Source of the DNA: Schmidtea polychroa
Taxonomy: Eukaryota
Direction: 5' to 3'
Assembly (NCBI GenBank): GCA_044892525.1
Contig: CM097886.1
Coordinates: 130,882,001 to 130,946,000, forward strand
DNA length: 64,000 nucleotides
In this document: positions 25,571-54,076 of the stretch, piece by piece
Numbering within the stretch: the first letter of the stretch is position 1
How the letters are laid out: each line of letters begins with the position of its first letter
Translations under genes and position numbers: made by a program
The notes under the pieces: generated by a model
Seen by the model: the letters and a program-made list of their open reading frames with translations, nothing else
Told to the model about the DNA's origin: nothing
The model's database searches: none

Positions 25571-26407
25571 AAATCACGGCTCAATTTTAAACGTGAAATA
25601 ATTTTTTGGATGGTCTTCAGAACAAGTTTGTTGGGTTTATTGGATCGGTGATGAGTTATAAATTCTTCAATTACAGCGTGTTTTATCACTTCACAAATTT
25701 ATAAATTCGAGTAAGATAACTTTTATTAATAATCACAATAAATTGTACATGTTGTAATTACAGCCAATCAATTTTAATATAGACAATTATCCAGAGCTTA
25801 TTACGTCACTACGTGAAGAATAGCTCTCCGTGTACAATTCGCCAATAACAATAGTAATCACTAATCGTTGATCGATTTAATCACAGAAATACATTACTCT
25901 ATTGCTTTGACCACAATTATTTACTCCTTTTCCGCCTTTATAATAGGTTTTCAAAGATTCTCGTTATCCTCTCAATCAATATATTTTCTTAATTCTGAAC
26001 TCTTTTTATTCAACCCTTTAACTCTCCTTTTAACTTTTAATTCTCCCTTTTTATTAACTCTTTTCTAACTAACTCTGAACTAACTCTTTTCTAATTCCTC
26101 TCTAACTTCGTCTGGTCTCGGCATCTTTCCCTTTTATAGTTTGTTACATTGATGTATTTCATATAATTTTGTTTTAACATTTTTTCCTTCCCGCATTTTA
26201 CACTGTCCCTACCTTATCTCTGACAGATGTCGAGATATGCCGGCTTTTTCCTTTTTCTGTTGGGCGATTTTTTTGAAATTTCGATATCTGTGACAAACTG
26301 TCAAGATATTAATTTTTCTCTGTTTTGTTTATGGAATTTGAAATTCTTTTTTCCCCATTTGTACTTGTTAATTAATAATGACCTTTGTTTTAATTTCTTG
26401 TTTGCTT

Positions 26408-27489
26408 TGTTGAGGTCTGTAAATTAAAATTAAAAATTTAAATAAAATTTAGGATAATAATTCAAATGGAAAGTAAGCGAGGAAAAAAGGCAAATAAAAG
26501 CGGGATCGTGCACAGAATCAATAGTAAAGGAAAGTGTGACGGAAACAGTAATAGAAAATGCAAAAAGCAATTACGAAAGGCGAGAATCTGGAAATCCGAG
26601 AAAAATCAATAAATGGAAAAATCATCGAAATCGAATGGGAAAAACGGGACAGGTATAGATTAGCTAATGGTCAACAAGATGATGGTTAGGGATTTATCAG
26701 AAAAGGGTTAGGAAGGGTCGAAAAACATTCAAACGTATGAAAACAGAAAACGTTAATTAATTAATTAATTGGCTAATGGAAAACCCGAGCTAATGGGAAA
26801 CCCGAGCCAATGGAGAACCCGAGAGACAAAGGAAACCCGAGCCAATGGAGAACCCGAGAGACAAAGGAAACCCGAGCTGGGTAAACAAGAAGAAAGGCAA
26901 ACAAAAGGAAGATTTGGGCCCATTAGCTTGACACAATGATTAATGGGAAAAGAGTAAGGAGAAGATAGCGCGCGTAGGAAGACCGGTAGGGCCATTAATT
27001 ATCTGGATTCGTTGGACCATTATGGATGACAGCCGAAGCAAACACGTAGGAGAAAATGTCAAACGAAAGATTGGTTCGGCAATAACCATTTGTCATCCTG
27101 ATTTTGAAGAGTATATAAGCAAAGGGAAAATCAGAGAAAATCGGCATTTTGCCTCAGGTAGGGTAAGAAGAATCGAGAATAGTCGAGAGGTAAAAACGAA
27201 TATAGAGAAGTAGGGAAAAGAAGAGATAGAATTAAGAATACTAAAAGGTAAAAAGGAATCAAACCAAACAGAAGCCGAGGAAAACGAGAGTCAAGAGAAT
27301 CGAAAGGATCGAAAGGTGAATATCATTTGTTTGCAAAGCATCAACGCCGAGCGGAGAATCGTATAAAACTTTGATTGGTAATTGTAGCGTGATAATAAAT
27401 TGTGAACCTGTTGTTTCAATATACGTTGGGTCGTTCATTGTTTTGATTTAAAGAACACAGGAGTCAGAGAGAACCGACTTGAAATAATC
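26408..27489 (+). repeat. 5' LTR (last 12 bp missing)
   Basis: Colinear with 39948-41029; lacks the terminal CAAAACCCAACA; six ACCCGAG motifs with CCAAT boxes, TATATAA at 27112, AATAAA at 27394. Confidence 0.95.
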
Positions 27490-27770
27490 GTGATTGCAAG
27501 TCGGTGGAAAATTATTGAAAGTTAGTGAAAAAATTAATTGTTGAAAAAAAATAGTACCGACGTGATAGAAAGTCGGAGGAAATTATTGAAAGCTACTGAA
27601 AAAGAAATTATTAAAAATTTAGTACCGACGTGATTGAAAGTCGGCGGAAAGTTACTAAAGTTAGTGAAAAAGTTAATTATTGGAAAAGTACTACAGAAGT
27701 GAGTGAAAGTCGGCTGAGAATCATTAAAAGTAGTGAAAATTTGTGAAAATAGTGCTAACGAGATTATTAA
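27490..27770 (+). repeat. Leader tandem repeat (about 68 bp x4) with CCGAC-N10-GTCGG stem-loops
   Basis: Units begin GTGA(T/G)..(C/A)AAGTCGG; perfect hairpins at 27557-27576 and 27625-27644. Confidence 0.75.
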
Positions 27771-27886
27771 AGAATATTATTGGGAGATTTAAAAGAAGTT
27801 GAAAAGTAATTTTAAATTATTGTTTAACGTTTGAAGTTTAGCTCAAAGTGAACCGATACAACCTCAGAAGTCAGAAACAAGTAGAA

Positions 27887-30157
27887 ATGGCAAATGATAA
27901 TGCTGTTATGCCTCTCAATAGAGAGATGATTGATTTTGCAAGTTGCCAGAAATTACCCGTCAATCAATATGGAGGAGACCCTGTTGAATTTGCAGATTTC
28001 ATGGGAGATTATTATATGTACGCCTCAGCATACGGATGGACACAAGCCATTATGGTTCAGAGATTCCCACTCTATCTGAAGGGTGTGGCAAGAGAAGCCT
28101 GGCAGCAAGTCGACAAACGAAATGTTGGCAATGATTGGACAAAATTGAAGGATGCAATGGCACTGAAACTGGTTGGTGGAGATATCAAAAGAATCATGCG
28201 ACAGAAATTTTATAATCGAGTTCAAGGTCCAGATGAATCGGTCAGTGAGTTTGCTTATCATCTGACCACTTTAGCAGATAAAGCCTTCGAAGTCAAACCA
28301 GATCAAGCGGATATGGCCAAGCAGGTTAAAGAGCTGTTAGAAGATCAGTTTATAACCGGAGTCCACTCCGAAATTAAAAAGGCCCTATGTTATGTGGATT
28401 TTTCCAATTTCGATGAGCTCGTGAAGAAAGCCATGAAGATAGAGCTGAATTTAAAAAGTGCAAAAAGATCAGATGCTTTTGGAGTTAATGTGGAGAGACG
28501 TGAGCGATCAATTACGCCTGTGAGAGCACCATGGGATGAAAAGAAAATAAATCAAATCAGTAGTCCAATTTTGAGACCAAATAATAGATTTCAAGCCAGT
28601 AGATCAGCCATGAACGTACAATCAAATGGACAGGTAAATAATCCTCAATGCGAACATTGCAAAAAGTCTGGACACTACTCAAATCAATGTTGGTTCAAAT
28701 ATGGGAAAAATCCCAGCCCTAACAAGAGATTCACAGAAAACAAAGGGATCAGCAGTGATGTCGAATGCTATCGATGCGGAAAGAAAGGGCATATTAGCAG
28801 AAACTGTTTCACCAGATCAAGATCATCGTCAACGTCACCTTCACCACAAAGGGACAAAGTGAATACAAATGGACAGATACAATGTCATTCGTGCAAGGGA
28901 TACGGCCACATGGCGCGATCATGCCCAAGGAACTCAGAAAGATTCAACAGACCTATTTTAAAGAAATCAATCAGATTCCAAGAAGATATGCCAAACATTA
29001 GTAACATGACATATGCTCAGAGAGAGGAATTTCAAGACAAAATGGAAAAGGAATTTCGAGAAATGCGACAGAAGCTGAACAAACTAGTGGCTAAATTTGA
29101 ATCAGATGAGGAAACTGAATCTCATATGATAATTGGAACCGTGTCAGAAGGTGAAGGAAAACCTGCCATGAAAGTGCGAAAGCTCGCATCAGATGAGAAT
29201 CCGACTGCACTGTTAGCCCGAGTCGAAAAATGGCTTGAGAAAATGGAAGCTGACAACTCCCAGTTGAAACGATGGATCGCAGAACTCAGTGTGATGTCAC
29301 TAACCCAAAGTGAACTAAAGAGAGCCATAAATTTATGTGCAAAGTTATTCAAAGGAAACAGAGACGATGAGATACTTAAACAAATGCAAAAGTTTGGCAA
29401 GGCTTTACGGTCAACAAGGGATTTAGCTGATATCATAGTGGAAACGACGGGACTTGATAATGTGAAGTGCCAATTCCGTGTAAATGCCTACGGACAAATC
29501 AAAGACCTAAAGGAGCGAATACTGCGTCAATACAGTGGATGGCAAGTGCAACTAAAATTTGAGAATCGATGTCTGGAAGACGAAGAGTACTTAGTAGATT
29601 GCGGTCTGATACCAGGCTGGAAAAATAAAGTAAATGTCGTTAATGCTGTTAATACTTTGAATTCAGACAGACAAAATTGGGAAAAGATTCTAGCAGATTT
29701 ACAAGATACCCTGTGTGCAGGGAATAGAGATAAAATTAATGCGAGTATCGACTTCATAAGGAGCATCGAAATGGATCGAGACATGAAAGAAGGGTTGTTT
29801 GAATGTATCGTACCGTATACGAATAAACCGACGAGTTATCAGGCAAAGCTAAAAGAGGTAATCCGAAAACTAGGACATGATTATGAGGCGGCAGACGATA
29901 GTGCGAAGTCTTTGATAATAGCGTTAAATATTGCGGATCAAAGGATTGAATATTATCAGGAACATTGGAGTGTAAAAGCAAAGAAAATACGACAAAAAGC
30001 AGCGGAGATATTAGGTAATGACGGAATTATCGTGTTGACGTTCAAAGGACGAGAATTGGATGATGACGAATATTTATTAAACTACGGATGTAACCAAATT
30101 GTATTAATAATGTGTACGCAACAAAACAAAGTGATGAAATGGAAAGAGATGCGGTAA
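27887..30157 (+). CDS. gag: Gag with three CX2CX4HX4C knuckles, followed by coiled-coil/helical segments and two ubiquitin-like domains
   Basis: YGGDPVEFADF...W..LKDAM capsid-like region; knuckles at 28649, 28766, 28883; Ubl1 about 29429-29641 and Ubl2 about 29909-30123. The frame opens at 27842; first ATG at 27887. Confidence 0.9.
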   Translation: MANDNAVMPLNREMIDFASCQKLPVNQYGGDPVEFADFMGDYYMYASAYGWTQAIMVQRFPLYLKGVAREAWQQVDKRNVGNDWTKLKDAMALKLVGGDIKRIMRQKFYNRVQGPDESVSEFAYHLTTLADKAFEVKPDQADMAKQVKELLEDQFITGVHSEIKKALCYVDFSNFDELVKKAMKIELNLKSAKRSDAFGVNVERRERSITPVRAPWDEKKINQISSPILRPNNRFQASRSAMNVQSNGQVNNPQCEHCKKSGHYSNQCWFKYGKNPSPNKRFTENKGISSDVECYRCGKKGHISRNCFTRSRSSSTSPSPQRDKVNTNGQIQCHSCKGYGHMARSCPRNSERFNRPILKKSIRFQEDMPNISNMTYAQREEFQDKMEKEFREMRQKLNKLVAKFESDEETESHMIIGTVSEGEGKPAMKVRKLASDENPTALLARVEKWLEKMEADNSQLKRWIAELSVMSLTQSELKRAINLCAKLFKGNRDDEILKQMQKFGKALRSTRDLADIIVETTGLDNVKCQFRVNAYGQIKDLKERILRQYSGWQVQLKFENRCLEDEEYLVDCGLIPGWKNKVNVVNAVNTLNSDRQNWEKILADLQDTLCAGNRDKINASIDFIRSIEMDRDMKEGLFECIVPYTNKPTSYQAKLKEVIRKLGHDYEAADDSAKSLIIALNIADQRIEYYQEHWSVKAKKIRQKAAEILGNDGIIVLTFKGRELDDDEYLLNYGCNQIVLIMCTQQNKVMKWKEMR

Positions 30158-33100
30158 TAGTACCGTTTTGGCCTCTATATGAGGAAATGGATAATAATAA
30201 TGTGGAGATTAAAACTGAAGTTGTAGATGACCCAGGAGAAATTGATCAAGAAATTAATGAATTGCAGAGATTAGAAACAATGGAAAATGAGGAAATGGGA
30301 TCGGAAAATGAAGTTGCAAGGGATATCGAGGAAATGAGCACCGATAATAAGGTACTACCGAGCATAGATGAGATGAAGAGCGAAGAGAACTTCGTTGAAA
30401 CGAAAAATGACATTGAGATATGTCGGAAAAAACAGAATGATGCGGAAATTGAATCTTTGAGTTTAGATGAATCAAGCGAAACTGAACGTTTAGATGAATC
30501 AAGCAGGACTGAGCGAATATTAAAAAGTTTAGTTACGGAATTGTACTTGTTAGATGAAACTGAAACAGAAGGAGATGACACTTCGGAGGGGGAGAAAAGA
30601 GTTGTAAAAAGATTGGCAACGGAATTAAAGAGGAGATTACCGTCGATAATTAAAAGAAATTATGAAGAAAAGGAATTTTGTGAGGAAGCAGTAATTGAGG
30701 ACCTAACACGAACTGAGTTAGATCGAGATGTAATATTGACAGTGTTAGCCTATATAATATTGGAGATTGGTATTTATGGTTGTCTGGAAAATGACAATTC
30801 AAAATCATTGATAAAGAAAGCTACTGAAATGGTGAATAAATATTTGACTAAGTGGATCACAAACAATGGCGGATGGGAAAAGTTGATACAAAAGGCTGAG
30901 AGCCCAAAAACAGAGACAGTGAGGAAAAAGGGAAAACTCGCATTTCCATGGTTGATGATTTCTATTATTATGTTATTGGGAATAATAAACACGACGAATT
31001 CATTAGTGGCATACGACTGCTCCCAAACCGAAATGGGAAGAGTATATTCGTTGGTAAACGTAGCAGAGTGTTCGGATGCATATCCAGTAAAATTTAAAGT
31101 GACAAATCCAGTAAAATATTATGTATATCAAGAATCGGAGTTTCGACGAGCAAAGGTGAGAGAGTGTACAGTGAAACGAACTACTTTTGTATTTTATTGT
31201 GGAAAATGGAGCCACTCATCGATGGTGAAAATGCAATCGATACCTAGACCGATAGAAATGATTCCAGAGAATTGTTTGGCAGCCTTTCAAACAGGACAGT
31301 TGAAAATCAATGCAGATATCAAACTACAAGCAAAGCTTAACCATAAAATCCGTGAGACTGTAACCGTGCGAGGGATAATAAAGTCGAATGGTGATTGCCA
31401 AGGCGAGCCATACAAAGTAGACGATGCTATAATTGACAAAGCCGTGGTTGTAGAAGAGTACATGTCAGAATTAAGAGAATTTGATGGATCATTTGATGAT
31501 GATACTGGTAAACTACAAACACATCCATTCTGCACCATGAAACAATCTAGCTGTCAGACAGGAGAATCAATATTGGTGTACGATGTCGATACCAAAAAGT
31601 GCAATTTAGTGCAATTGAAGTCAATGAGTTTTAAAGAAATAACGGGAGAACAGATCAGGGAAAAGCCTGAGAAAATAAGAATGGATCCAGCAACGAGTAC
31701 AACAACAAGAATCACACCTCTACGGATGAAAGATACTCCAACAGTGTTAATGTCAACCTCGGAGGAAGATGGGATGCGATTCCTGAGAAAAGAAACTAAA
31801 ACAAAGTGTGGACAAAATGTCTATGAGACAAATTATAAAGGTATATATGTATCTCAGAAGATGATTACAGAGGCCCAAACAAACATACATGCCGGAGATA
31901 TTAAGTTGACAAATTACTTTAATAACAAAATAGATTATTTATTTCACTTTGGTCAAAATACTGTTGAAAATGTGTACCGAGAAGTTATAATAAATGATTG
32001 CAATCTCAACAAAGAAATACTCCGAAATCGGATGGCAATGGCTATAACCAATCCTAATTTGATAGCACCAATGTTAATTACAGAAAATGGGGTGTTTGCC
32101 AGAATCTTCGGTGAAGCACTATATAGCTATAAATGTAAAGCGGTACCAGTTAAACTGACAAAGTATGACCAATGCACCAACGAGTTACCAGTGAATTTAA
32201 ATGGAAAGTTGCGATTTATGGAGCCTGTAACACGAATCTTACTGGAAGAGGACGTGAAACCGAAAGTGTTACAGTGCAATAGATTGTTGGCACCACTATA
32301 CAGACTAACACCAGAATCTTGGATTGCATTACCAGATCATCGAGAAGTAAAGACACCGGAAAACTTAGAATTGACAGAATTACAATATCTGGTAAATTTT
32401 ACGTCGTTAGAGAAATTATCGCAAAGTGGAATTTACTCGAACGAAGACATTGAGGAAGCTCGCAGAAACTTGTTATTTCCATCAAAGAAAGAAAGAGTAA
32501 TAATGGAAATGGTAGATACAATTCTCCCAAGCGGAAGTGGGAAGGTAAATTACGAGTATTTGTTAACTCCAGATCATTACAAGAAAGCGACGTATAATAC
32601 AATGAAAAAGATCTGGGGAAAGTTTATGTTTATTGGACAAGCGTGTGCCGGATTGATTGGAATTTATGTAATATGTGTTGTAATCAAAGTGATAATATCG
32701 CAGGTCCTGTCAACACACAGGTTATACGCGATCACAGGTTGGTCGTGGAAACTAGTAATTGGGTGCATACCATTATTGGCTAGATTCTTCATTACTCATC
32801 ATCAATATCAGGAGTTGGAGATACTCAAGGCGCGAATATTAAAGAAGAAAAAGGTGAGCTACGCTAGTACTACCCCTTCAAGGGACGAGAATAATGACAA
32901 TGACAACGAGGGTGATAGTGCACCGTTATATGTTGACAATCAAGAACTAAGTGGAATGAATAAAGAAGCGTTGAGAACTTATCAAATCTTAAAAGAGCCA
33001 CTGTTGAATGCGAGTAGCGTAGACACGTTTACAAAATTGTGTATACCAAAATCATTTATGCAACCAGCACCAGTGTATCCAGTTGATCGATTACGAGAGA

Positions 33101-34950
33101 TGAAACCAGTGGAAAATATCGCATTACAATGTGAAGGAATAGTAGGAGAGAGAATCGAGCCTTCTAGCGCAGAGATCGAGAGAAAGAATATGTTAGGCTT
33201 ACCATGCAACTACTCATTGATGACATTAACAAAAAGAGGAAAGCAACCCCGAATATTTATACAAATGAACAAACATAAAGTGGAAGCTTTGGTTGATTCG
33301 GGATCTAGTCACACAATAATATCGGAAAATGTATTAAACGCGAAGGAGAAAATGCGAATAAAGCCTACCGACGAAATAGTGAGGTCATTATCAAAAAATG
33401 AATTAAACATAATTGGACAACTTAACGTCATATTCCATATTGGAGATCGAATAATAGCGCACGATGCGCTCATAATGAAGGGAAGTCCAGTACGATGTCT
33501 GATCGGCATGGATATATTAGAGCAGCTGGATGGAGTCTCACTTGATTTAAAGACAGGTAATTTGATAGCAGGAGAAACAGGAGAAATAATTCACAGGGCA
33601 GGTGAGGTGTTTGGGAATCAGACATTGACAATACCAAAACAATCGGAAATGGTGTATTGTGCAAATACCATGAGTATGGATAGTGGCGATTTTTTAAATG
33701 AGCCAAACCAGGCACTAGTCGAAAAATATGAAATACCGAGATGCGACCAAATAGTCAAAGTGGAAAATCAGATAGAGTCTGTACATGCAATGAAAAGTAG
33801 TAATAAACCAGTCAGCTACATCAATAAGATATTATATGTAGCAATAATGCTGATGTTAGTAACAGTTGCGAGCGGCAAAAAGATCGACTTACCATATGCG
33901 GTAAACAAAATCCGAGGAATGGAGAAAATACATATATATTCCACTCTAAAAAATATAGTATGGAGCTGTAAATGCGAGATCGCAGACCAAATAGAAATTA
34001 TTGATTTACTAGACAATACGGTACCAGTGGTAGAACTAAATTATGATAAAGATATATTTGCGGTACGAAAGTTAAAGCCAAATTTCAAATACCAATGGCT
34101 GTTGAGACAGAACATGTCAAAGTGGTACACGCAAATTCCGATAGAAGTGCACACAAAAGAGATGCGAAACTTGATTGAAATAGAACCAGAGATAAATGGA
34201 ATCAATATATCTTGGAAGCCAGTGGACTTGGTGAAAGTGCGAATCACATTTCAAGGGTTAAATGTCGACACCCTTAACTCGCGAAAATCATTTATCCGCT
34301 ATGAGAAATTGAAAATGAATCAAAATTATTCAGTTAATGCAAACTACTACGAGAACATATGCCTCGAAAATGGAACGGTAGTGAGAAACCAATGGTCACG
34401 ATTTAAGAGCGAGACCCAGTCTATCTATCTCAGAGACGAGTCAAATCGTATAACCCTGAGTGTTGGAAATGGACCGGTAACGATATATAGAAAATCAGGA
34501 AATGATGAAAGAGTTGTTATTATCTACAAACAAAAAACCCTGACTATATTAGATGCCGGTAATCATTTTTTTACACTTTACACTTCTGATTTAGAGACGG
34601 CATGGGAATTAACAGTTAAATATCAGCGATGGATAACCGAACCAGGCAGATGGCAAACAGTTTTCGTGGAAGTCAAGACAATCAATGAAACGAAACGAAA
34701 ATCATATACAACCACATCACCTTTCCAATTACCGACCCAAGAGACGACAAAACCTAACTCAAACAAACTAATGATGATAAATTCGGATTTGACAGTCAAC
34801 TATTGTGAATATCTCATTTACATTCTAATAACAGGTTTTCTTATCTTATCAATAACATTCATAATCATCACCATCTTGATATGTGTAAAAGAGAGACAAC
34901 TAACTATCCTTCAACCACCATCATATTCATATTATGAGACAAGACTATAA
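30112..34950 (+). CDS. Polyprotein: acidic linker, Bcl-2-like domain, TM/signal, class III fusion glycoprotein, TM, retropepsin, FN3-like membrane protein
   Basis: 1612-aa uninterrupted ORF in the -1 frame relative to gag. WITNNGGWE (BH2-like), AYDC/FYCG..SH/NELPV env motifs, LVDSGSSHTII plus LIGMDIL protease, second signal-like segment and C-terminal TM. Confidence 0.9.
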   Translation: MYATKQSDEMERDAVIVPFWPLYEEMDNNNVEIKTEVVDDPGEIDQEINELQRLETMENEEMGSENEVARDIEEMSTDNKVLPSIDEMKSEENFVETKNDIEICRKKQNDAEIESLSLDESSETERLDESSRTERILKSLVTELYLLDETETEGDDTSEGEKRVVKRLATELKRRLPSIIKRNYEEKEFCEEAVIEDLTRTELDRDVILTVLAYIILEIGIYGCLENDNSKSLIKKATEMVNKYLTKWITNNGGWEKLIQKAESPKTETVRKKGKLAFPWLMISIIMLLGIINTTNSLVAYDCSQTEMGRVYSLVNVAECSDAYPVKFKVTNPVKYYVYQESEFRRAKVRECTVKRTTFVFYCGKWSHSSMVKMQSIPRPIEMIPENCLAAFQTGQLKINADIKLQAKLNHKIRETVTVRGIIKSNGDCQGEPYKVDDAIIDKAVVVEEYMSELREFDGSFDDDTGKLQTHPFCTMKQSSCQTGESILVYDVDTKKCNLVQLKSMSFKEITGEQIREKPEKIRMDPATSTTTRITPLRMKDTPTVLMSTSEEDGMRFLRKETKTKCGQNVYETNYKGIYVSQKMITEAQTNIHAGDIKLTNYFNNKIDYLFHFGQNTVENVYREVIINDCNLNKEILRNRMAMAITNPNLIAPMLITENGVFARIFGEALYSYKCKAVPVKLTKYDQCTNELPVNLNGKLRFMEPVTRILLEEDVKPKVLQCNRLLAPLYRLTPESWIALPDHREVKTPENLELTELQYLVNFTSLEKLSQSGIYSNEDIEEARRNLLFPSKKERVIMEMVDTILPSGSGKVNYEYLLTPDHYKKATYNTMKKIWGKFMFIGQACAGLIGIYVICVVIKVIISQVLSTHRLYAITGWSWKLVIGCIPLLARFFITHHQYQELEILKARILKKKKVSYASTTPSRDENNDNDNEGDSAPLYVDNQELSGMNKEALRTYQILKEPLLNASSVDTFTKLCIPKSFMQPAPVYPVDRLREMKPVENIALQCEGIVGERIEPSSAEIERKNMLGLPCNYSLMTLTKRGKQPRIFIQMNKHKVEALVDSGSSHTIISENVLNAKEKMRIKPTDEIVRSLSKNELNIIGQLNVIFHIGDRIIAHDALIMKGSPVRCLIGMDILEQLDGVSLDLKTGNLIAGETGEIIHRAGEVFGNQTLTIPKQSEMVYCANTMSMDSGDFLNEPNQALVEKYEIPRCDQIVKVENQIESVHAMKSSNKPVSYINKILYVAIMLMLVTVASGKKIDLPYAVNKIRGMEKIHIYSTLKNIVWSCKCEIADQIEIIDLLDNTVPVVELNYDKDIFAVRKLKPNFKYQWLLRQNMSKWYTQIPIEVHTKEMRNLIEIEPEINGINISWKPVDLVKVRITFQGLNVDTLNSRKSFIRYEKLKMNQNYSVNANYYENICLENGTVVRNQWSRFKSETQSIYLRDESNRITLSVGNGPVTIYRKSGNDERVVIIYKQKTLTILDAGNHFFTLYTSDLETAWELTVKYQRWITEPGRWQTVFVEVKTINETKRKSYTTTSPFQLPTQETTKPNSNKLMMINSDLTVNYCEYLIYILITGFLILSITFIIITILICVKERQLTILQPPSYSYYETRL
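30937..32800 (+). CDS. env: Env-like glycoprotein domain, chuvirus/Monjiviricetes-type class III fusogen
   Basis: Signal FPWLMISIIMLLGII, then LVAYDCS, C..K.TTFVFYCGKWSH, GDCQG, CGQNVYETNYKGIY, YFNNKIDYL, GEALYSYKC, CTNELPV, FMEPVTRIL, SGIYS, and TM FMFIGQACAGLIGIYVICVVI. Family assigned from recalled motif pattern. Confidence 0.75.
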
Positions 34951-35131
34951 ATTGTGATCTGCATGCTATAAATAGTGTATAAAAATATATTATATTTATA
35001 TCAACAATGTGCATGTTTTATAAGTACCATAGGATGAACTGTGTAATTTGTTTGAGATTCGAAGCGAGGTGTTGATGCTTTGCGAATAAAGAGTGATACA
35101 AAAAAAAATAACTATCATTTAATTTCAGAGA

Positions 35132-35377
35132 ATGCAAGAAACCTCGGAGATGACATGCAAAGAGTGTAAAACAAGTACGCAAGAACTAAAGCAAAGGTTT
35201 CGTAGCATGCAGGGCAGAATAACAGATTTGGAGGAAGAAAACTTCCGTCTAAAAAGGCGGTTGGACCGTTTGGAAATCTTATTGTTTCAACACGAAGCCG
35301 ATTTCGCGATGTTTCGAATGAGAGTAGAAGAAATAGAGGAATCGGAAGATGATGGTGAGATAAATCAATTAGACTAA
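35132..35377 (+). CDS. Small coiled-coil/acidic accessory ORF (81 aa)
   Basis: ATG ORF just after a TTTAATTTCAG acceptor-like site; heptad pattern LKQRFRSMQGRITDLEEENFRLKRRLDRLEILL; GC-richer than flanks. Confidence 0.55.
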   Translation: MQETSEMTCKECKTSTQELKQRFRSMQGRITDLEEENFRLKRRLDRLEILLFQHEADFAMFRMRVEEIEESEDDGEINQLD

Positions 35378-35926
35378 AAAAATAAATTATTTAAACGGAC
35401 CCTGTTGGTGTTTTTTCGTCCTCGAGAGAAAAAAATAATAGTAAATAAATATAAGTAAATTAACAATCAAAGGAATAAACAAATTGATATAAAGAAATAA
35501 TTGGCAGTGATAAATAATAGTTAAATAAAAATAAGTAGATTACCAAGTAAATAATCAAATGAATAAACAAATTGATATAAATAAATAATTAAAAAAGTGA
35601 TAAATTAAATAAATGAATAATAGATAAAAATGAACAAAGTTAAACGAGCAAATAGAATAACTCAAATAAATGTTGCAAATAATGAAATGACTACCTTAAA
35701 TGAGCATTAGAAATAAATAATATTAAATGACTGATTAGTAATTAATGAATTAGCATAACTATATAGCAATGGGTAACCCACTGGGGCGAGAGAACAAAAT
35801 TATAAATAAGTAAGGAATAATTTCACATTAGTAGTAACAAAGACTAATCACGAAGAGGGACACAATTACCCCACCCTTTCTAGCATAAATTGAAAACAAA
35901 GGTATGCGGAACATTTATTCAAAGTT

Positions 35927-36229
35927 TTATTCGTCATCAGAGTCCAACAGAACGGGACTTTGAATGCCACAGTCCCATTCCCTGCGTACATTGCAAGGCG
36001 GGCGTCGTTCAAACCTACTGCCTGTATCCACACAGGCAAAGGTACGTTTCAATCCCTTTCGACGCGGTAACAAAGGGACCCTGAAAAAGAAATTAAAAAA
36101 CCTGTTAGTATAGCAGTCAAATAACCATTGCATAACATCGAGATGCTCAAACTTAGGTTCTGGGACAGCCTAAAATAGTAAGGGTTGAAAAGAAAAATGA
36201 AATAAATACTATGTAAAACTCCGTACCAT
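35927..36229 (-). CDS. Antisense spliced ORF inside the LTR element (about 66 aa if the ATG at 36229 is the start)
   Basis: Exons 36229-36227 (ATG), 36169-36126, 36080-35927; GT-AG introns of 57 and 45 nt; reads MAVPEPKFEHLDVMQWVPLLPRRKGLKRTFACVDTGSRFERRPPCNVRREWDCGIQSPVLLDSDDE*; AATAAA at 35919-35914. Confidence 0.55.
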
Positions 36230-36760
36230 GGCGCCCTCGACAAATAATTAGTGCAGGGAAGTAATTGATTTTAAGAATTACGTAATAAATTAATAAGTAT
36301 AAATACGGCTAAAATTGTCAGAAAAATACGAGTAGCTGTAATTAGAGGTTTGCTTTTAGTATAAATACAAAATCAAAAATCAAAAATATATGACCCAAAA
36401 CATGAGTGTGGTATAGGTAGTTGCATAAACAAATTAAAGTTAAAAAGTAAATAAGTTAATTTAATAAGCATCAATAAGTTAATTTAATAAGCAACACGAG
36501 CACTTGCAATCACCGGGGTTTGGCTACCCTGGACAGCGATTGCAAATGTTCGGTTACTATGAGGGTAGTTGAGGACAGCATGGTAAAAAGAATCACAAAT
36601 ACAAAAAATAACAAAAGATAAGTAATCACTTACGTCCATAGTAATTGAGGGATGGCGTTACTAAAATTCAAAAAAAAATATGAAAAAGAAAATATAAAAT
36701 GCTTACTTCAAGATGGGCAAGACAAAACTAACGAAAAGTGGTAAAGCAGAAACTTATATA

Positions 36761-36900
36761 GAACGCTTATCAGTACAGACTACGTTGACAAACTACAGGG
36801 TAATTAATTAGAAAGCTTATCAGCACGGCTACGTAAGAAACCACAGGGTAATTAATTATAGAGCCTATCGGTATCGGCTACGTCAAAAACCGCAGGATAA
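36761..36900. repeat. Degenerate tandem repeat, about 49 bp x3
   Basis: GCTTATCAG.AC.GCTACGT...AAAC.ACAGGGTAATTAATTA units. Confidence 0.7.
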
Positions 36901-37734
36901 GTAAAAATTCATTCGGAATATTAATGTTCATCGCAGATACCTTATCAGGCTGAGTAAACAAGTGATATCATGAGTCGGTCGGTGCGGGGGAGATTAACTT
37001 TTTACCATGCTGCGAGCGAAATAAACCAACAAGTTATTAATAACAAAAAATTATTTTTAAATCATATTATTAATAATAATGGTAATAATGATGAAAGAAA
37101 AAATATAAATAAAAAAATAAATAAATTACCTTGCGACTGGGAATAAATTAGACAAATATTTTGCACATAAAAATCGATCAAACCGTAAAGACACACACAC
37201 AGACAGACACACAAGCATATCCCATCAACTGCTCAACTCTGTTATTAACCACAATTTTATCCATATTCTTGGTAAACCGTATTCATCTTGAACAATAACA
37301 ACAACCACAGCTAATATCATCGCGCTACTAACAATATAGTATAAGAAATTTTCAATAAATTTTACTGTTGATTTCCACCAAAGTCACCAGTCTAATCAAT
37401 TAATGAATTCATAAACTCTCACACAAAAATTGTAAAAATGCAAATTGTAACAAAATATAATTTAATCAGATACTATTAAAAAATTTCTTTTTATTCTCAC
37501 CACATAACCAAAATAGGAGCAATATACACTTTCAAAATGCAGGAATATCTTTTTAATATCCTGAAATAATAAACTAAATGTACTCTGTAATATCCTAAAA
37601 TAATTAATTTCAATACTCTGAAACTACAATAACCTTAACAGACTGTCGTTAGTCTACTCAATTTATTAATTTTTAATAGACGTCAGATAAAAATTATTTC
37701 CCTCAATTAATAGACGCCCCGATAATCGGATAAA

Positions 37735-37821
37735 TAATAATAATAATAATAATATTGATAAAATAATAATATTGATAATAATAATGGTAATGATAGTGGT
37801 AATAACAGTAATAATTATAAC

Positions 37822-37867
<46 letters not shown>

Positions 37868-37895
37868 TTGATAGTAGTAATAATAATAGTAGTAG
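37735..37895. repeat. (AAT)n/(AGT)n compound microsatellite
   Basis: Direct reading. Confidence 0.9.
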
Positions 37896-39935
37896 TAGTA
37901 ATTTTTCAAGTTTATTTCTCATTTAAATTGATATCTCTAACATTTCAGGGAACTGCAAATATTATTACTCTTTCGTAATTTTCAAATAATTTCCAACTAT
38001 AATTTGCAAGCATTACACAAATGCCTAAATATTATTTTAAATGCTCAATTATATCCACTCAAATCCTCATGCTAATAAATAACAAGATTAATAACAATTT
38101 TATACAAATCATTGAATTGCTTTATAATTGCCGATATTTCATAACATCACATATAATTGTTACATAAAATGAATAAATAATAAACCTACTTCAATCTTAA
38201 AAAATATAAATTAATAAACCAAAAAAAAATCATTTGCTAAAAATATTTCAGAATATAAAAAGATTTTCATTATTTTATTGAACCTTCGATTTGAGCTGGA
38301 ATTCTGAGATTTGATCGACAGATTATAAATATATATCTCAAACCTGTGCTATAATTTTCATAATTCAATGTTGTCAGTGCATATCGATTTTTCCCCAACT
38401 TATCAATCATCGGTTTTAAGAATCAATGACTAAGAATAATTCGAATCTTTATACAATTAATACAAAAAAAAATAAAAATTAATCTAACCATTTTGTGTTT
38501 CTTCTTCAACGTTTTGTAGCATGCATGGTTTTTATAACCCAATCGTCAACCATAAATAAGTGTGAATGAAATTTAAGCCAAACTCTAATATAAAAAATAA
38601 ATATATTGTTGTTAAATTCGTTTAAATCAAGTGATTGAATTTTCATTTCCTGCTTTTAAAAAGCTATATTTTCTCTCTTTCAGCCGTTGACAAATGGCCA
38701 ATCAAATTGAAGAGAGTGTGTGTCATCAAAATTATTAGAGACACGACAATAATGATTTTATAAGCATCTCTTGTACATGTACACATGGAGAGAAATAATT
38801 TCATTACCATTACATACATACAACTGCAAACTGATTGGGTGTTGTATATTTTATTTACTTTCTGACAAAAATTAATCAGCAAATCCCATTAATCACCTCT
38901 ATTTTGTTTACATTGGCCAATCTCGGTTTACACGAGCAATTACGAAAAAGATTTATCTTATCTCTTTTTCAAGGCGTTTTGAGTCCATGATCGGCAATTG
39001 CCCGAAGCCGAATATATCGAAGAGAAAAAAAAATCCCCATTGATTAGAAATGTCTGATAACGACAGAACTAATACAATTAGAATATATTTAAAATCAAGA
39101 CCATTTTTTCAATTCAAACAGAAAATGTTTTTGGGTTTATAACAAAGGTATCGAAATGTTATATTTCTCTACAAAAAAATATATATATATATAATTACAC
39201 AATGTGAAATTTATCCTGAAGCTTATAGGATTGAAATTTTTAATTTATAAATTTTAAATCAAACTTATAATTTTAAAATGTATTATAAAATAAGGGGCAA
39301 ATTATAGTCGACACCATAAATAAGTCTTTTGAAAACTGTATTACTAAAAATGAAATGAAACTGTGATAGTACATTTTTATTTCAGTGAAACAAAAATAAA
39401 ATAAAAACAATTGCGCAAATAAGATTTGGACCGTGGATCCATTTCAGAGTGACGTTTTGGCTACGGGAATATCAACAAATGCAAATGGGAAATTAATAGG
39501 TCTTTTGGAAAATGAATTTTGAAAGTCGATTATTGCAATTTATTTGATTTACTATAAATTACCTGAAGTTATTGGGCAAATATTTGTTTGGGAAATATTT
39601 AAATAATTAATAATTTAGCCTTATTTTATTTAATGTATAATATATAATAAGTTAAACTAAAATCTTTAAATATAATTTAAAATAATTAAAACCAATAAAA
39701 TCAATAATTAATTAATTCATAGAGCAATTAAAATATAAAATTAATCTGAAAAATTAAAATGTCACGGTTGAATAAAAAAAAATATATCTTGAAGTAATAA
39801 TTCGGATAAATAGTAATAATAATAATAAGGGTAATATTAATAATAATAATAATAGTGATAATAATGACAACAATAATAATAATAATAATACATAATCACA
39901 GCAAAACATAGATTTCGAGAACGAAAAAATTTTTT

Positions 39936-39945
39936 AAGGGGGAGA
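39936..39945 (+). other. Polypurine tract
   Basis: AAGGGGGAGA, 2 nt upstream of the 3' LTR TGT. Confidence 0.85.
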
Positions 39946-39947
39946 TA

Positions 39948-41041
39948 TGTTGAGGTCTGTAAATTAAAATTAAAAATTTAAATAAAATTTAGGATAATAA
40001 TTCAAATGGAAAGTAAGCGAGGAAAAAAGGCAAATAAAAGCGGGATCGTGCACAGAATCAATAGTAAAGGAAAGTGTGACGGAAACAGTAATAGAAAATG
40101 CAAAAAGCAATTACGAAAGGCGAGAATCTGGAAATCCGAGAAAAATCAATAAATGGAAAAATCATCGAAATCGAATGGGAAAAACGGGACAGGTATAGAT
40201 TAGCTAATGGTCAACAAGATGATGGTTAGGGATTTATCAGAAAAGGGTTAGGAAGGGTCGAAAAACATTCAAACGTATGAAAACAGAAAACGTTAATTAA
40301 TTAATTAATTGGCTAATGGAAAACCCGAGCTAATGGGAAACCCGAGCCAATGGAGAACCCGAGAGACAAAGGAAACCCGAGCCAATGGAGAACCCGAGAG
40401 ACAAAGGAAACCCGAGCTGGGTAAACAAGAAGAAAGGCAAACAAAAGGAAGATTTGGGCCCATTAGCTTGACACAATGATTAATGGGAAAAGAGTAAGGA
40501 GAAGATAGCGCGCGTAGGAAGACCGGTAGGGCCATTAATTATCTGGATTCGTTGGACCATTATGGATGACAGCCGAAGCAAACACGTAGGAGAAAATGTC
40601 AAACGAAAGATTGGCTCGGCAATAACCATTTGTCATCCTGATTTCGAGGAGTATATAAGCAAAGGGAAAATCAGAGAAAATCGGCATTTTGCCTCAGGTA
40701 GGGTAAGAAGAATCGAGAATAGTCGAGAGGTAAAAACGAATATAGAGAAGTAGGGAAAAGAAGAGATAGAATTAAGAATACTAAAAGGTAAAAAGGAATC
40801 AAACCAAACAGAAGCCGAGGAAAACGAGAGTCAAGAGAATCGAAAGGATCGAAAGGTGAATATCATTTGTTTGCAAAGCATCAACGCCGAGCGGAGAATC
40901 GTATAAAACTTTGATTGGTAATTGTAGCGTGATAATAAATTGTGAACCTGTTGTTTCAATATACGTTGGGTCGTTCATTGTTTTGATTTAAAGAACACAG
41001 GAGTCAGAGAGAACCGACTTGAAATAATCCAAAACCCAACA
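39948..41041 (+). repeat. 3' LTR (complete, 1094 bp)
   Basis: TGTTGAGG...CCCAACA followed by TSD GCTT; AATAAA at 40934. Confidence 0.97.
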
Positions 41042-41850
41042 GCTTTATTTTGTTTGATTTCTCATTTCATGCTTCTTTTTACTTCCGTTTTCTTTTCTGA
41101 ATTCCCATAGATCGTCCCGTTTGCCAGGTAATTTTATTTATTTTTCATATTATTTATTATTCAGGTATCCTCAACAAGTTCAACAATAATTGAACCCATG
41201 CGGAAAATCATTACCATATAAGTAAGAATTAAAATATTCACATAGAGACATTAATTGCGATTTTCCATAAAAATGCATAAGTAAAATAGTAGATTCTATA
41301 CTGCAGATAAACTAATATTTCTAGAAATCATTTAATTCAACTAAAAGTATTCAGACATTCAAACGGTTAGTAGATTTAAAAACTGATACTTATCTTCCAA
41401 AATCACCAGCTTCGAAATTATGTTGAGCATTCGTCATCTTGAGATTTATTTGATTCAAAAACTTTGAGCATAAAGTGTGAACATCTCGATATTGGAGAAT
41501 CCGTTTAGTGTAACACTCGAGCATATACGGTTTGATTGAAAAAAAACCTTGAGCAATTGTTAATTAACTTCATCTGATTCAAAAGTTGGGGGGGCATATA
41601 ACATTTGAGTTTAAAAACTTCGAACATATAAATATTTAGCTTCATTCGATTCAAAAGCTTGCATATGGAATTTAATTTAAAATACGTGACCATATTGATA
41701 TCTAAAACATCTTTTGTTTTTCAAACTTCCAATCACTTGAAATTATAAATTAGAGCCTGCCTATAATTATCAGACTTGGAGCTAAATAAAAAATCATTAA
41801 AATTTTCTAAAATTATTAGATAAGAAATTGAATATATAATTTATAAAATA

Positions 41851-43893: not shown

Positions 43894-46800
43894 AATTCCT
43901 CAATTTACGCTGTAGATACGTTCCAAGAAACTAATGGGCAAATCGAAACCGCGTAAATCGAGGCTTCAAATTCATACAAAAATAATAGATGGGTTCCAGA
44001 AAATCGCGTAAAACGAGGCATAAAAATACAATTTTATTTAGAAATAGATTTAAAAAATCGACATTTAAATTTTAAAATCGCTACTATCTTCGGATTCAAA
44101 CCCAGCAGCGTGCTCTTCTTCTCGTTTTATTAAATAGTCTGTAAACAATTTTTGTGTTTTGTTTTTTTAAAAATCTTTGTAAATTTCACTGTATTGCACG
44201 CAAAGGCTTTTAATGTCTAGCTGAAATTTAACAGCACGGTCAATATCAGGATCAGTGGCCAAAACCTTATTTTCTAAGTTACTGGCCAATTGTAAATTAT
44301 AAACAAGCAAATCTTGGGCGAAACACGTGCACTCCACAACATAATATTTGACGTACTGCAGGCGTAATGGAGTGGGTTACAGACGTCTAGTCGTTGTCAT
44401 GCATTTGAGAGACACTTGCCACTAAATATGTTTGATTTAATTAAAAAAATATTATTTTGTATGACCGTGTAAAATGGGTAATATTATACTGTAATATTAT
44501 ACTGTATGTGATATTCTTATTTTTGTTATTTGGTGATGCAATTATCACTGTCACTTACACATGATCTAGGTCATCACTACACACAAAATATGCACATAGC
44601 GCCGATGAGCCCTATTCCGGATTTACCTATAGGCAGACTAGGCACTGCCTAGGGGCCCGCAGTTTTGGGGGCCCCAAAATCGAAATCATCTAAGGGGCCA
44701 CAAAAAAAATATTTTTTTTAATGTATTTTTTATATACTAAAATATAAAAAAATTAAAATACAGTATAAAATACATGTATTATATAAAGAATTAAAAAAAC
44801 ATTGTACGTATTTTTTTATTTAAGGAAATTTTCTAAAATATCAACAATTTGGGGCCCCAATAATTTTAAAAGTTATTATAGTTGAAAAAATATTTTTTCT
44901 TTATTTCCGCAACCTCCAAGGGGGTTATAATTAGTGGAGTTTGTCGGTTGAAATTTGCGAAGGCGGGAATCGAATTGTTATTTTGTAGAAACATATTTTT
45001 TTGGAGTGTTGGTAAAAATTTTATACACAAAAGAAAAAAATTATTTCAAAGGAAATCGGCTTAAAAATAAAAAATTTAAAATAAAGCAATTTTAGGACGA
45101 AGTGAGGCTTTTTTTTAATTGATTAATTGTTAAGATCTAGGTATAGTATAAAAATATTAAAATTATTTAATCAATTTAATTAAAAAATACTTTAATTAAA
45201 TTTAAGATAGAATGAAACGAAACTACGCAAGCGGAGCGTTTAAAAGGAAGAAAAAAGCAGAGAGAGAAGAAGAAATTAAGAAAATTCCTAAGCTAGATTG
45301 TTTTTTCACTAAAGATTCTGCAACTGAAAGTGAATTTGTAGCACAAGAAGATCGGCACCAAAGCGACCAAATAGAGGTCTCTTCCAGTACTTCAAATCAA
45401 CCTATTTTCACTGGAAGTTCAAATCAAGTTTTTAATTATTTCGAAAATAATTTGGAGCTGGTAGATAACATTAATAATGAAAATTTAGTGGAATCCCTGA
45501 TTGAATCATCTCCAAATGCAAATCGTGAGAATGACGTAGGATTATGGAGAGAATTGTCTTCTGAAGACACTTTGTACTGGATTGAGAAGGGCCCTGAAAG
45601 TTGCCAACATTCAACAGAAAACTTTCATTCTTCCAAACAGCTCTATAATGACAATACTGTTCGATATTGCTCTAAGACTTTATTCTTTGATGAAAAAACA
45701 AATGGAGAAAAGTACACTCGCGAATGGCTTGTATATTCGCCTAAAATTGGAAATGTTTTTTGTTTTGTTTGCAAATTACTCACTGCTTCAAATTTCAATT
45801 TAGCAACCAATGGCCTGCGAGATTGGAAAAATGCTGGTTCCTCAATCAAAAGCCATCAAAACTCTTCTGAACATCGTAATGCTTTAGTTACATAGTTAAC
45901 TAGAAAAAGTAACTATTCTGTGTCGGATCAATTGCAAAAAGAAATACAACAAGAAAGGATTTACTGGAGAAAAGTCTTAGAACGAGTTGTAGCTGTTATT
46001 TGCACCATTGTTGAACGAAATTTACCATTTCGAGGATCAAATGAAATTTTTGGAATGGAAGGAAGTGGCAATTTCATTGGACTCTTGGAACTTATTGCAA
46101 AATTTGATCCATTTTTAGCAGAGCACATTAGAAAGTTTGGTAATCCAGGATCTGGAAAAACTTCTTATCTCTCTAAAACAATTTTTGAGGAATTGCTCGA
46201 TCTGATGGCAAAAACAGTATTGAAGTCGATTTCTGATGACATCAAACAATCAAAATATTTTGGAATGTCTGTGGATTCCACCCCTGATATATCACACAAA
46301 GATCAATTGTGCATGATTATCAGATACGTTGATCAAATCAATTTTAAACCAATCGAGCGATTCTTAAACTTTATTGAGATAGAGAATCACACTGGAGAAT
46401 ATTTAGCTGACATTTCATTGGAATTTTTTGAAAAGGATATTGGGTTAAATTTTCAAGATTGCCGATCACAATCGTATGACAACGCTATGAATATGGCCGG
46501 AAAATACAAAGGAATGAGGGCAAAAGTTCTTGAAAAAAATGATAAAGCAATTTTTTTACCGTGCAGTGCTCATTCTTTGAATTTGGTTGGAAATTCAGGT
46601 GCGGACTGTTGCATAGAATCAATCAATTTTTTCGGATTAATTCAGGAAATTTACAATTTTTTTTCATCGTCTACTAAGAGATGGAACAAGTTAGTTGAAT
46701 TTTCAAATAGAACGGTAAAATCGTTATCAAAGACTAGATGGAGTGCTCGTTCTGAGTCAGTTAAGGTCATTCACAAAAACTATGAAAATGTAATGGAAGC

Positions 46801-49270: not shown

Positions 49271-49818
49271 GTAATTTCTATCGTTTGTTATTTTGAATTA
49301 GTATAAATTAGTTTAAATTAGCTAACTATAACATTTTTAAAAAAAGTTTTTTAAATTATCATTATTGCTAGTAGTATATTGTGAACCCTTAACATCAAAG
49401 AGAAAATGCCGCCCACCACCCTACTATTTTTACCCCCTCCCCCTCATCTTTCCCCCCACAGTTATCTTGGCGGATTTCAAAGATTTATAGCTAATTCGAT
49501 TTACAACAACCTCCTTTACAAATTATTACTAGTGGTTTACAAAATTAAAAGAAATAAATAAAAATTTATTGAAAAACATAAACAATTAATTTTTATTCTT
49601 ATCAATCTCCTCCTCCGATTTTGGCAACTAAATTTGTCAAGTAATGATTTAATTGAAAAAATCTTTTAATTTTTTCGACTACTATTAATTCTTTTTTAAT
49701 TCATATCGACAATTATTATCTTTTTTTAAGAATCAATTTTTCCATTCGCCATTGATAATAATTTGATCAATTCCATGTATAAATGTATTTTCAGAAATAT
49801 TAAATATAAAACCAACAC

Positions 49819-49819
<1 letters not shown>

Positions 49820-49887
<68 letters not shown>
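49820..49887. repeat. (AAT)n microsatellite, left half of the insertion site (right half 55583-55642)
   Basis: Same-strand AAT tracts on both sides of the fold-back element. Confidence 0.9.
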
Positions 49888-49888
<1 letters not shown>

Positions 49889-50399
49889 GTAGTATGATTG
49901 GAGCTCCCCCGGCCAGGAGCTCCCCGGCCACATATACCCCCTCCCTCCCTCCCCCCCCCCGGGAAAAAATTTTTTTTTAAATTTTTTGTTTTAATTAATT
50001 GGCCGGGCGGGCTCACACTTTTTTTCATCCCAAAAATTAATGTTCCTGCCAACAGATTTTATTGACCGATACCTCATCTTAAAGCTCAGTCCAAGACCTT
50101 TCGAATGAGCTATAGGTATCTTATATATCTTTAATAGTTTTAATGTTATTAACGTTTGATGACCACCATCTTTTCAACATTAAATTATTATTATTTTCCA
50201 AAATATTATTAATTGGCCTGGCGGGCTCACACTTTTTTTCATCCCAAAGATAAATGTTCCCACCAACAGATTTTATTGATCGATAGCTTATTTTAAAGCT
50301 CTGTGCAAGAACTTTCTAATGAGATATAGATTTTTATCATACGATGACTCATCACATTTTTAGAACAAAGACAATGACTCATCATATTTTTAGATTGAT

Positions 50400-50960
50400 T
50401 ACGTCATATTTTTAGAACGATGCCTAATATTTTTAGAATGGTGCCTAATATTTTTAGAACGATTACGTCATACTTTTAGAACGATGTCTAATATTTTTAG
50501 AACGATGTCTAATATTTTTAGAACTATTACGTAATCGATGTCTAATATTTTTAGAACGATGCCAAATATTTTTAGAACGATGCCTAATATTTTTAGAATG
50601 ATTACGTCATAATTTTAGAACGAAGTCTAATATTTTTAGAACGATGCCTAATATTTTAGAACTATTACGTAATCGATGTCTAATATTTTTAGAACGATGC
50701 CAAATATTTTTAGAACGATGCCTAATATTTTTAGAATGATTACGTCATAATTTTAGAACGACGCCTAATATTTTTAGAACGATTACGTCATACTTTTAGA
50801 ACGATGCCAAATATTTTTAGAACGATGCCTAATATTTTTAGAACGATTACGTCATACTTTTAGAACGATGCCTAATATTTTTAGAACGATGCCAAATATT
50901 TTTAGAATGATTACATCATACTTTTAGAACGATGTCTAATATTTTTAGAATTAATAATTT
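50400..50960. repeat. About 20-bp tandem array (AATATTTTTAGAACGATGCCT variants) with bZIP-like TTACGTAA/TTACGTCA cores; mirrored at about 54300-54860
   Basis: Direct reading; the same variants occur in mirrored order in the right arm. Confidence 0.9.
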
Positions 50961-51089
50961 TGTTTTAATTATCGATGATTATATAATTTTGTTTAAATCA
51001 TTGATTATATAATTCTTTTGTTTTAATTATAGAATACGTAATAATATAATTTTGTTTAAATCGTTGATTACATATTATTATTTTCTAAG

Positions 51090-51164
<75 letters not shown>

Positions 51165-51293
51165 CATATATACACCGAGTCTATCCGACAAAATATTCTG
51201 TCCCCCTATGGGTACTGCTCACAAATGTACTACTCACATTCAACAAGTCACAAGGGTACTGTTCACACTCAATATGTCGTAAATTAATATTAA

Positions 51294-51369
<76 letters not shown>

Positions 51370-51751: not shown

Positions 51752-51788
<37 letters not shown>

Positions 51789-53420: not shown

Positions 53421-53428
53421 TCATTAAC

Positions 53429-53465
<37 letters not shown>

Positions 53466-53969: not shown

Positions 53970-54076
53970 TGAGTGTGAACAGTACCCTTGTGACTTGTTG
54001 AATGTGAGTAGTACATTTGTGAGCAGTACCCATAGGGGGACAGAATATTTTGTCGGATAGACTCGGTGTATATATG

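Follow-up and report, generated by a model that had tools for sequence, protein, structure and literature searches.

A Membrane Module with Predicted Fibronectin Type III-Like Domains and a Putative PDZ-Binding End at the C-Terminus of a Planarian gag-env-pol Retroelement Polyprotein

Introduction

The stretch of Schmidtea polychroa DNA analysed here (64,000 nucleotides, nt; assembly GCA_044892525.1, contig CM097886.1, positions 130,882,001 to 130,946,000 of the forward strand; hereafter the window) contains a Ty3/gypsy gag-env-pol element of 14.6 kb (26408-41041) with a single-polyprotein design. The window frame 30094-34950 encodes 1618 amino acids (aa), comprising an Env of the glycoprotein B (gB) type, an aspartic protease (PR), and a module that forms the last 386 residues. 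An earlier note, made from the letters alone, had interpreted this module as a second type I membrane protein, probably once a separate open reading frame (ORF), acting as a receptor-binding or immune-decoy partner of the fusogen. The locus raises the question of how such a module is encoded, what it is built of, and what it could do beside a gB-type fusogen. The module is the C-terminal part of one Gag-Env-PR-reverse transcriptase (RT)-RNase H (RH)-integrase (IN) polyprotein and not a separate gene.

Results

In-Frame Fusion of the Module Behind the Integrase

In the RT-bearing siblings L016, L018, and L020, Gag, a ubiquitin-like domain (Ubl), Env, PR, RT, RH, IN, and the module are encoded in one frame, with the Pol domains in the order PR-RT-RH-IN, and RT-bearing frames of the family reach approximately 3,330 aa. 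The order of Pfam domains, Gag followed by the gB-type Env and Pol, is found both in L018 and in the window. The relatives were reached by searching with PF24664, with a divergent copy, and with the distant homolog P0001 described below. In each of the six lineages for which the upstream frame was read (A, B, C, D, E, and F2), the module is fused in frame behind the integrase. The search of its own genome with the module yielded 1343 candidates; the 107 that were scored are 95-100% identical, 14 of them lie in frames of >3000 aa, and 20 match from residue 1, as the window copy does.

The window copy contains three defects: a frame break, the in-frame loss of RT, RH, and IN, and a missing stretch resembling a primer-binding site (PBS). 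The Gag frame breaks against the next frame within an overlap at 30094-30157, where the siblings have one continuous frame, and in the comparison with L016 the break amounts to one gap. The loss of RT, RNase H, and integrase is due to a deletion of 2904 nt. The 5' long terminal repeat (LTR) is without the final 12 nt of the 3' LTR, and the sibling-type PBS-like stretch is absent behind it; instead, tandem repeats of 68-69 nt stand directly behind the 5' LTR (27490-27740). The LTR identity of 99.7%, the 4-bp target-site duplication, and the polypurine tract indicate a young insertion. The window copy is a young non-autonomous derivative in which the module was kept in frame.

The ATG at 33790, from which the earlier note had started the module, is indeed in frame (residue 1233 of the 1618-aa frame) but is no start codon of the module itself. 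It is located upstream of the deletion junction, within the post-protease region, and the same codon is ACG (Thr) in L016, L018, and L020 and ATG in 11/11 deletion-type loci. Over the 45 residues that precede the hydrophobic segment of the module, no Met occurs in any of the seven RT-bearing loci of family A, two of which represent one genomic place, and the same holds for the RT-bearing loci of lineages C and D. Lineages B, E, and F2 possess one or two Met before this hydrophobic region (h-region), at places that are not shared. RT was lost by three separate deletions, one in each of the lineages A, B, and C, and every one of them left Env and the module in one frame. The deletion in the window was also considered as a reverse-transcribed splice product, which was rejected on account of the microhomology at the junction and the ends TA..AC. 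The RT-less subfamilies of B (L023/L025, L027-L029, and L033) and of C (L062, L063, L069, and L071) are independent and have other breakpoints, inside PR and before PR, respectively.

RNA was examined in two raw-read runs that are labelled as another species and whose reads derive from related copies, not from this locus. The reads cover an RT-bearing copy in 30/30 bins and lie mainly on one strand, which is the sense strand according to the poly-A ends. Among the indexed data sets listed, no holder is recorded as RNA. RNA molecules start in the LTR at 40194 (43 and 101 in the two runs), and no pile of starts pointing to a subgenomic RNA was found before the module among the start places listed (11/23 and 10/15). 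GT-AG ends occur in none of the six joints listed, the sole listed joint into the module being the genomic deletion, and the read depth over the module is no greater than over Pol. At window position 35307, a loose 5' part occurs in 74 and 113 RNA reads with poor mutual agreement.

With no conserved Met, no GT-AG end among the joints listed, and a module depth that does not exceed Pol, nothing points to an ORF that is separate or spliced; the RT-bearing siblings carry the module in frame behind IN. A once-separate ORF with its own ATG receives some support from P0001, whose gene call gives a stand-alone protein of 410 aa beginning with Met, but the fusion in six lineages and the derived ATG speak against it.

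Predicted Fold of the Module

Several of the features read from the letters by the earlier note were recovered. The signal-like segment is present as the hydrophobic ILYVAIMLMLVT at 33829-33864; it is kept in all 8 rows of the module alignment, although weaker in the damaged F1 copy. Signal peptidase requires small residues at positions -3 and -1, a rule applied here by eye. Five N-x-S/T sequons are located in the ectodomain, and a strong transmembrane (TM) segment follows at 34810-34881, so that by hydropathy a signal-like segment, a sequon-bearing ectodomain, one TM, and a short tail are all in place. The stalk described as Thr/Pro-rich has 16 Ser, Thr, or Pro in 41 aa and is Thr-rich, with only 3 Pro.

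The proposed fibronectin type III (FN3)-like units are supported as predicted β-sandwiches, but there are three domains, not two. AlphaFold with a 17-row alignment gave a mean predicted local distance difference test (pLDDT) score of 78.5 and a predicted template modelling (pTM) score of 0.68, with an all-β structure up to residue ~273; in single-sequence mode the pLDDT was only 36.7. The best Foldseek matches are three-domain fibronectin fragments (E 7e-10). In VIA, fibronectin FN9-10 was matched with Z 9.7-9.8 and a root-mean-square deviation (rmsd) of 4.6-5.1 over ~165 aligned residues, and single-domain matches for the three parts had an rmsd of 2.0-3.3. Domain 2 matches fibronectin EDB (Z 8.5, rmsd 2.5, 77 aligned), and domain 3 matches 7kwc (Z 9.7, rmsd 2.0, 81 aligned) and 2vtf (Z 8.2, rmsd 2.8). 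Matches in BFVD are generic FN3/Ig-like proteins of phages and large viruses. The ESM features give fn3 at 0.93, a recognition below the safe level that serves as a lead only. By sequence, Pfam fn3 (PF00041) has no match in the module, and the window's place is not listed in the genome-wide fn3 search. The models suggest that the module consists of three FN3-like sandwiches, of which the third may be another Ig-like type.

Retention and Evolution of the Module

The module is present in seven lineages of this genome (A-E, F1, and F2), with 31-46% identity to that of the window, and invariant Trp/Tyr positions run through the 8 rows of the alignment. Neither of the outcomes by which the earlier note would have been refuted, a missing β-sandwich prediction or absence of the segment from other family members, was thus observed. 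Ratios of non-synonymous to synonymous substitution rates (dN/dS) were calculated for the ectodomain in 13 pairs: six gave 0.15-0.33, one involving a damaged copy gave 0.65, a close pair gave 0.99, and five had saturated dS. The module is under purifying selection in 6/8 measurable pairs. Simultaneously, it evolves faster than Env: over 15 lineage pairs, identity is 69-90% for Env and 34-64% for the module. The two trees are alike, ((A,(D,E)),(F2,(B,C))), with the module tree ~4.9x longer; the Env and module of B, and likewise of D, were taken from different copies.

Outside this genome, a HMMER search of 1.84 billion representatives gave P0001 (E 2e-9, 21% identity) as the sole homolog, located on a single JGI contig. 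P0002 (E 3e-4) is a repeat protein and was rejected as a chance match. In word-indexed protein searches, the single module protein matched nothing at near or longer lengths, and the profile matched P0001 only, which is itself included in the profile. No DNA context of P0001 was found in metagenome contigs, and the window protein had no match in viral contigs. Capture of a host gene is plausible from the fold, but no donor appeared when the module profile was compared with 30 of the 90 host fn3 loci, the best-ranking ones (best E 0.087), a comparison weakened by exon-split genes.

The Tail End and Late-Domain Motifs

The tail of the window module, QPPSYSYYETRL-stop, is present with its PPxY and reads PPSYSYYETRL-stop in its last residues. 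The earlier note had pointed to PPxY as a motif that binds Nedd4-family WW domains and serves as a viral late domain; it is not a conserved tail feature, being limited to 1/7 lineages and absent from P0001. The tail ends are ETRL in A, ETWV in B (with one variant ETLV), ETFV in C, ETTV in D, ETFV in F1, and ETWV in F2, so that an end of the form ETx[VL], matching class I PDZ-binding motifs, recurs in 6/7 lineages, and P0001 has a class I end as well (STLV). The class 1 consensus is x-[ST]-x-hydrophobic in the parts of PMC9987997 consulted, and it accommodates the residues found at -1 (R, W, F, T, L), positions -2 and 0 being maintained. Identity among the six aligning lineages is 0.70 over the final four residues, vs. 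0.17 for the rest of the tail. The pattern [ST]-x-[VLI] ends 7/8 rows, whereas in 200,000 shuffles of the tails it was never reached by more than 4 rows; the rows are kin and not independent. Judged from these sequences, the conserved tail feature is a putative class I PDZ-binding end and not PPxY.

Lineage E stops early at VHRQ, and its PDZ end is absent. This loss is considered derived, since the sister lineage D keeps ETTV. The lineage E loci (L057, L058, L072, and L073) have a 10-residue tail without the PDZ end and form a natural control.

The PPSY motif occurs in every family-A tail examined, and its chance of arising in the shuffled residues of that tail is only 1.5%, so a role specific to lineage A, such as ubiquitin-driven turnover, is possible, yet it is not the signal of the family. 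PPxY-Nedd4 is an established late domain, but the late domains in the consulted parts of PMC8402826 sit in Gag or other structural proteins; no PPxY was found in the window Gag. A conserved YPx3L motif is located behind the Env TM instead, in 6/6 lineages examined (the window plus L075-L079, L022, L023, L062, and L069), with one B copy lacking the P. PTAP overlaps this motif in B, C, and F2, except for two C copies without PTAP. In PMC8402826, as far as consulted, YPx3L and PTAP are late domains of the ALIX and TSG101 types, respectively. The YPx3L/PTAP stretch is thus a candidate ESCRT late domain that the Env tail, not Gag, carries; it may also have a structural role, its flanks being conserved too.

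Other Features of the Element and the Window

The coordinates of the features are collected in Table 1. Behind the Env TM, a mildly hydrophobic stretch remains under the hydropathy threshold and was taken as non-crossing. In the Pfam scan of the window, the ubiquitin match (E=2e-4) is below the cut-off.

Table 1. Features of the element in the window.
Feature	Position	Strand	Remarks
Target-site duplication	26404-26407 and 41042-41045		GCTT, 4 bp
5' LTR	26408..27489	+	starts TGTTG; 99.7% identity to 3' LTR over 1082 nt
Gag frame	27842..30157	+	Retrotrans_gag, three CCHC knuckles, ubiquitin-like domain (Pfam; the last below cut-off)
Bcl-2-like domain, weak	30691..30876	+	PF00452 E=0.13, below cut-off
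Hydrophobic segment before Env	~30937-31000	+	hydropathy
Env ectodomain of the HSV (herpes simplex virus)/gB type (Monjiviricetes_fusion)	31009..32607	+	PF24664 E=1e-94
TM after Env	~32623-32715	+	hydropathy
P-x-x-P-x-Y-P-x-x-x-L, candidate ALIX-type (YPx3L) late domain	33064..33093	+	Env cytoplasmic linker
Aspartic protease (LVDSG)	33241..33534	+	Pfam
ATG	33790..33792	+	derived codon, truncated post-protease region of RT-less subfamily
Junction of 2904-nt in-frame deletion	33805..33820 (about)	+	short microhomology, no GT-AG ends
Internal signal-like segment	33829..33876	+	h-region and small residues at presumed -3/-1; hydropathy
Predicted FN3-like domain 1	33913..34164	+	model residues 13-96; mean inter-lineage identity 0.55
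Predicted FN3-like domain 2	34165..34434	+	model residues 97-186; identity 0.51
Predicted third β-sandwich (FN3- or Ig-like)	34435..34695	+	model residues 187-273; identity 0.35
Thr/Ser-rich stalk, predicted disordered	34678..34800	+	16/41 S/T/P; pLDDT <50; identity 0.18
Transmembrane helix	34810..34881	+	Kyte-Doolittle value up to 3.1; in all 8 rows
PPSY (PPxY)	34915..34926	+	all family-A tails examined; none in lineages B-F
ETRL-stop, putative class I PDZ-binding motif	34936..34950	+	C-terminal consensus match
3' LTR	39948..41041	+	terminal CAACA; polypurine tract just upstream

On the 3' side of the module, a small accessory ORF of coiled-coil-like character is located at 35123-35377 (+). 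It was found in 15/16 family-A loci tested (one shortened, one extended), is 37-47% identical in lineages D and E, and occupies the place of an exonuclease ORF in lineages B/C/F. In lineage B (L023:6068-7525, -), this accessory ORF behind the module contains an ISG20/ISG20L2-like exonuclease domain (PDB 7yw5, E 2e-9); its N-terminal part is also found in lineage C and F loci at the same place, and it has no match in the window. Further downstream, the AT-rich region 37092-39947 is nearly without RNA reads in X23/X24, unlike its flanks, and may differ from copy to copy or have been inserted later.

Outside the element, another LTR copy with 85-91% identity lies on the opposite strand (12454-13520, -) and is probably a solo LTR. 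Broken hAT-type transposase frames were observed at 17843-20582 (-) and 45206-47710 (+), and a large foldback-like inverted repeat at 49800-55650, with arms 99% identical and internal tandem repeats.

Discussion

Comparison with Known Systems

Judged by its Env stretch, the element matches the published Smed_errantivirus_2, with 246/251 residues identical to the window (5 differences, compared by eye) in a 251-aa stretch of domain I-II (Chary & Hayashi, eLife, PMC13524379), in keeping with a Schmidtea-type planarian as the likely host. As described in the parts of that study consulted, the flatworm GAG-ENV-POL errantiviruses of the HSV/gB type are alike in gag-env-pol order, gB-type Env, and a length of ~14.8 kb, and 215 copies of Smed_errantivirus_2 are listed; unlike a full GAG-ENV-POL errantivirus, the window copy is without RT, RH, and IN and has an interrupted ORF. 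The word 'fibronectin' has 0 occurrences in the text of the article and its 7 supplements as available, and no post-integrase membrane module is described in its relevant passages and Discussion. The giant Burro/GYPSM1 elements, in the consulted parts of PMC6431247, share with the window family one polyprotein, Gag, CCHC knuckles, and an Env in frame between Gag and Pol; they also have ubiquitin-like and BCL2-like motifs, for which the window gives matches below the cut-off. Burro exceeds 30 kb and has a 4,873-aa ORF with MATH/BIR/ankyrin motifs, whereas the window family, with its 14.6 kb and ~3,330 aa, has no such Pfam matches; an FN3-TM module is not mentioned for Burro in those parts. In the literature searched, no description of a post-integrase FN3/PDZ module was found; figures, subscription papers, Grohme et al. 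2018, and Jurka 2007 (Repbase) are beyond that scope and may show it. The element family is known, and the conserved extra module is apparently undescribed.

In its layout, the module resembles Drosophila Sas, which combines three FN3 repeats with a single TM and a short tail, and which targets vesicles carrying capsids of the Ty3/gypsy Gag-derived dArc1 (PMC10289811, consulted in part). Sas is encoded by the host, contains VWFC domains, and binds dArc1 through a tail motif of the NPxY type (PMC10289811), while the module is encoded by the element, has no VWFC in Pfam scans and no NPxY in its tails, and carries the putative PDZ-binding end. Sas is a precedent for the mechanism by analogy only. 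The tail end has counterparts in the viral class 1 PDZ-binding motifs of HPV E6, HTLV-1 Tax, and influenza NS1, which share the x-[ST]-x-hydrophobic C-terminus, the module having Glu at -3; in the consulted parts of PMC9987997, those viral proteins are soluble and their binding was tested, while the motif of the module is predicted and stands at the end of a retroelement's type I membrane module.

Proposed Role of the Module

With moderate confidence, the module is interpreted as an adhesion or targeting protein that is made along with the gB-type fusogen and has a PDZ-docking tail. The internal signal likely threads the module into the endoplasmic reticulum, and signal peptidase likely releases it as a type I glycoprotein. 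In the resulting topology, Gag would be inside, Env outside, Pol inside, the FN3 module outside, and the tail inside, which fits the four hydrophobic segments with four membrane crossings. The module would be synthesized 1:1 with Gag and Env. The three predicted FN3-like domains could act as an adhesion or targeting ligand, while the C-terminal motif likely docks on host PDZ scaffolds and would concentrate the module at a polarised or junctional membrane, as the site of particle budding. ESCRT recruitment would proceed more likely via YPx3L/PTAP behind Env than via PPSY. Particles or vesicles would be attached to the target cell ahead of gB-type fusion, and the module likely helps particles or host cells attach to, or be positioned against, neighbouring cells.

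Several points weigh against this interpretation. It is based on a predicted fold and on sequence, and a shared FN3 fold by itself shows no function. The module has no Pfam or PDB sequence match, identities to the structural matches are 8-18%, and whole-model TM-scores are low (0.2-0.3), the latter because the domain angles differ. Clear purifying selection is missing in 2/8 measurable pairs (0.65 and 0.99), besides the five with saturated dS. In-frame deletions were possibly favoured merely by the need for continued translation, and the PDZ end was lost in lineage E, whose long open frames nevertheless persist. In addition, the RNA reads stem from related copies under a different species label and not from the window locus.

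A more far-reaching form of the proposal, which was close to the view of the earlier note, is rather doubtful: the module would be the missing receptor-binding partner of a lone gB fusogen, giving a two-glycoprotein entry machine from one polyprotein that buds at PDZ-defined contacts and targets a chosen cell type, e.g., stem or germ cells. In the Discussion of PMC13524379, the entry of gB-carrying elements is stated to be unknown because herpes gB needs partner glycoproteins. As in herpesviruses, where gB works with gD/gH/gL (PMC13524379), a class III-type fusogen is found here beside another putative surface glycoprotein. Among the matches listed for the module, there is no structural match to gD or gH/gL, an absence that is not an exclusion.

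Equally tentative is a role within the producing cell, in which the module would act as a receptor mimic sequestering or rearranging PDZ polarity and junction scaffolds, as a block to re-entry of related particles, or as a decoy. Scribble/Dlg are intracellular targets of the viral class 1 PDZ-binding motifs (HPV E6, HTLV-1 Tax, and influenza NS1; PMC9987997, in the parts consulted), the elements hold other host-meddling domains (Ubl, Bcl-2-like, and the ISG20-like ORF in lineage B), and the faster evolution of the module relative to Env fits a host conflict. However, synthesis as part of the Gag and Env chain, together with retention in RT-less derivatives of a packaged type, fits a particle component at least equally.

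It is improbable that the two hydrophobic segments of the module chiefly serve to hold Pol/integrase and the polyprotein at the budding membrane, with the ectodomain as a captured spacer that does little by itself. An Env within the chain does place Pol between two membrane anchors, and the RT-less lineages retain an anchor; but three predicted domains under purifying selection, invariant Trp/Tyr, and a conserved C-terminal motif exceed the needs of a tether, and the module is retained where Pol is lost. That the module was formerly an ORF of its own, started at the ATG, with a PPxY that serves as the late domain for budding by recruiting Nedd4-family ligases, is highly improbable and, as a description of the family, largely refuted by the fusion, RNA, and tail evidence given above.

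Sharing one polyprotein with Gag and a gB-type Env, the conserved and fast-evolving FN3-TM-PDZ module is a tangible candidate for a factor of attachment or of polarised release, in a planarian that allows RNA interference and single-cell tools. If this interpretation is true, a retroelement would itself encode a counterpart to the host protein Sas as Drosophila uses it.

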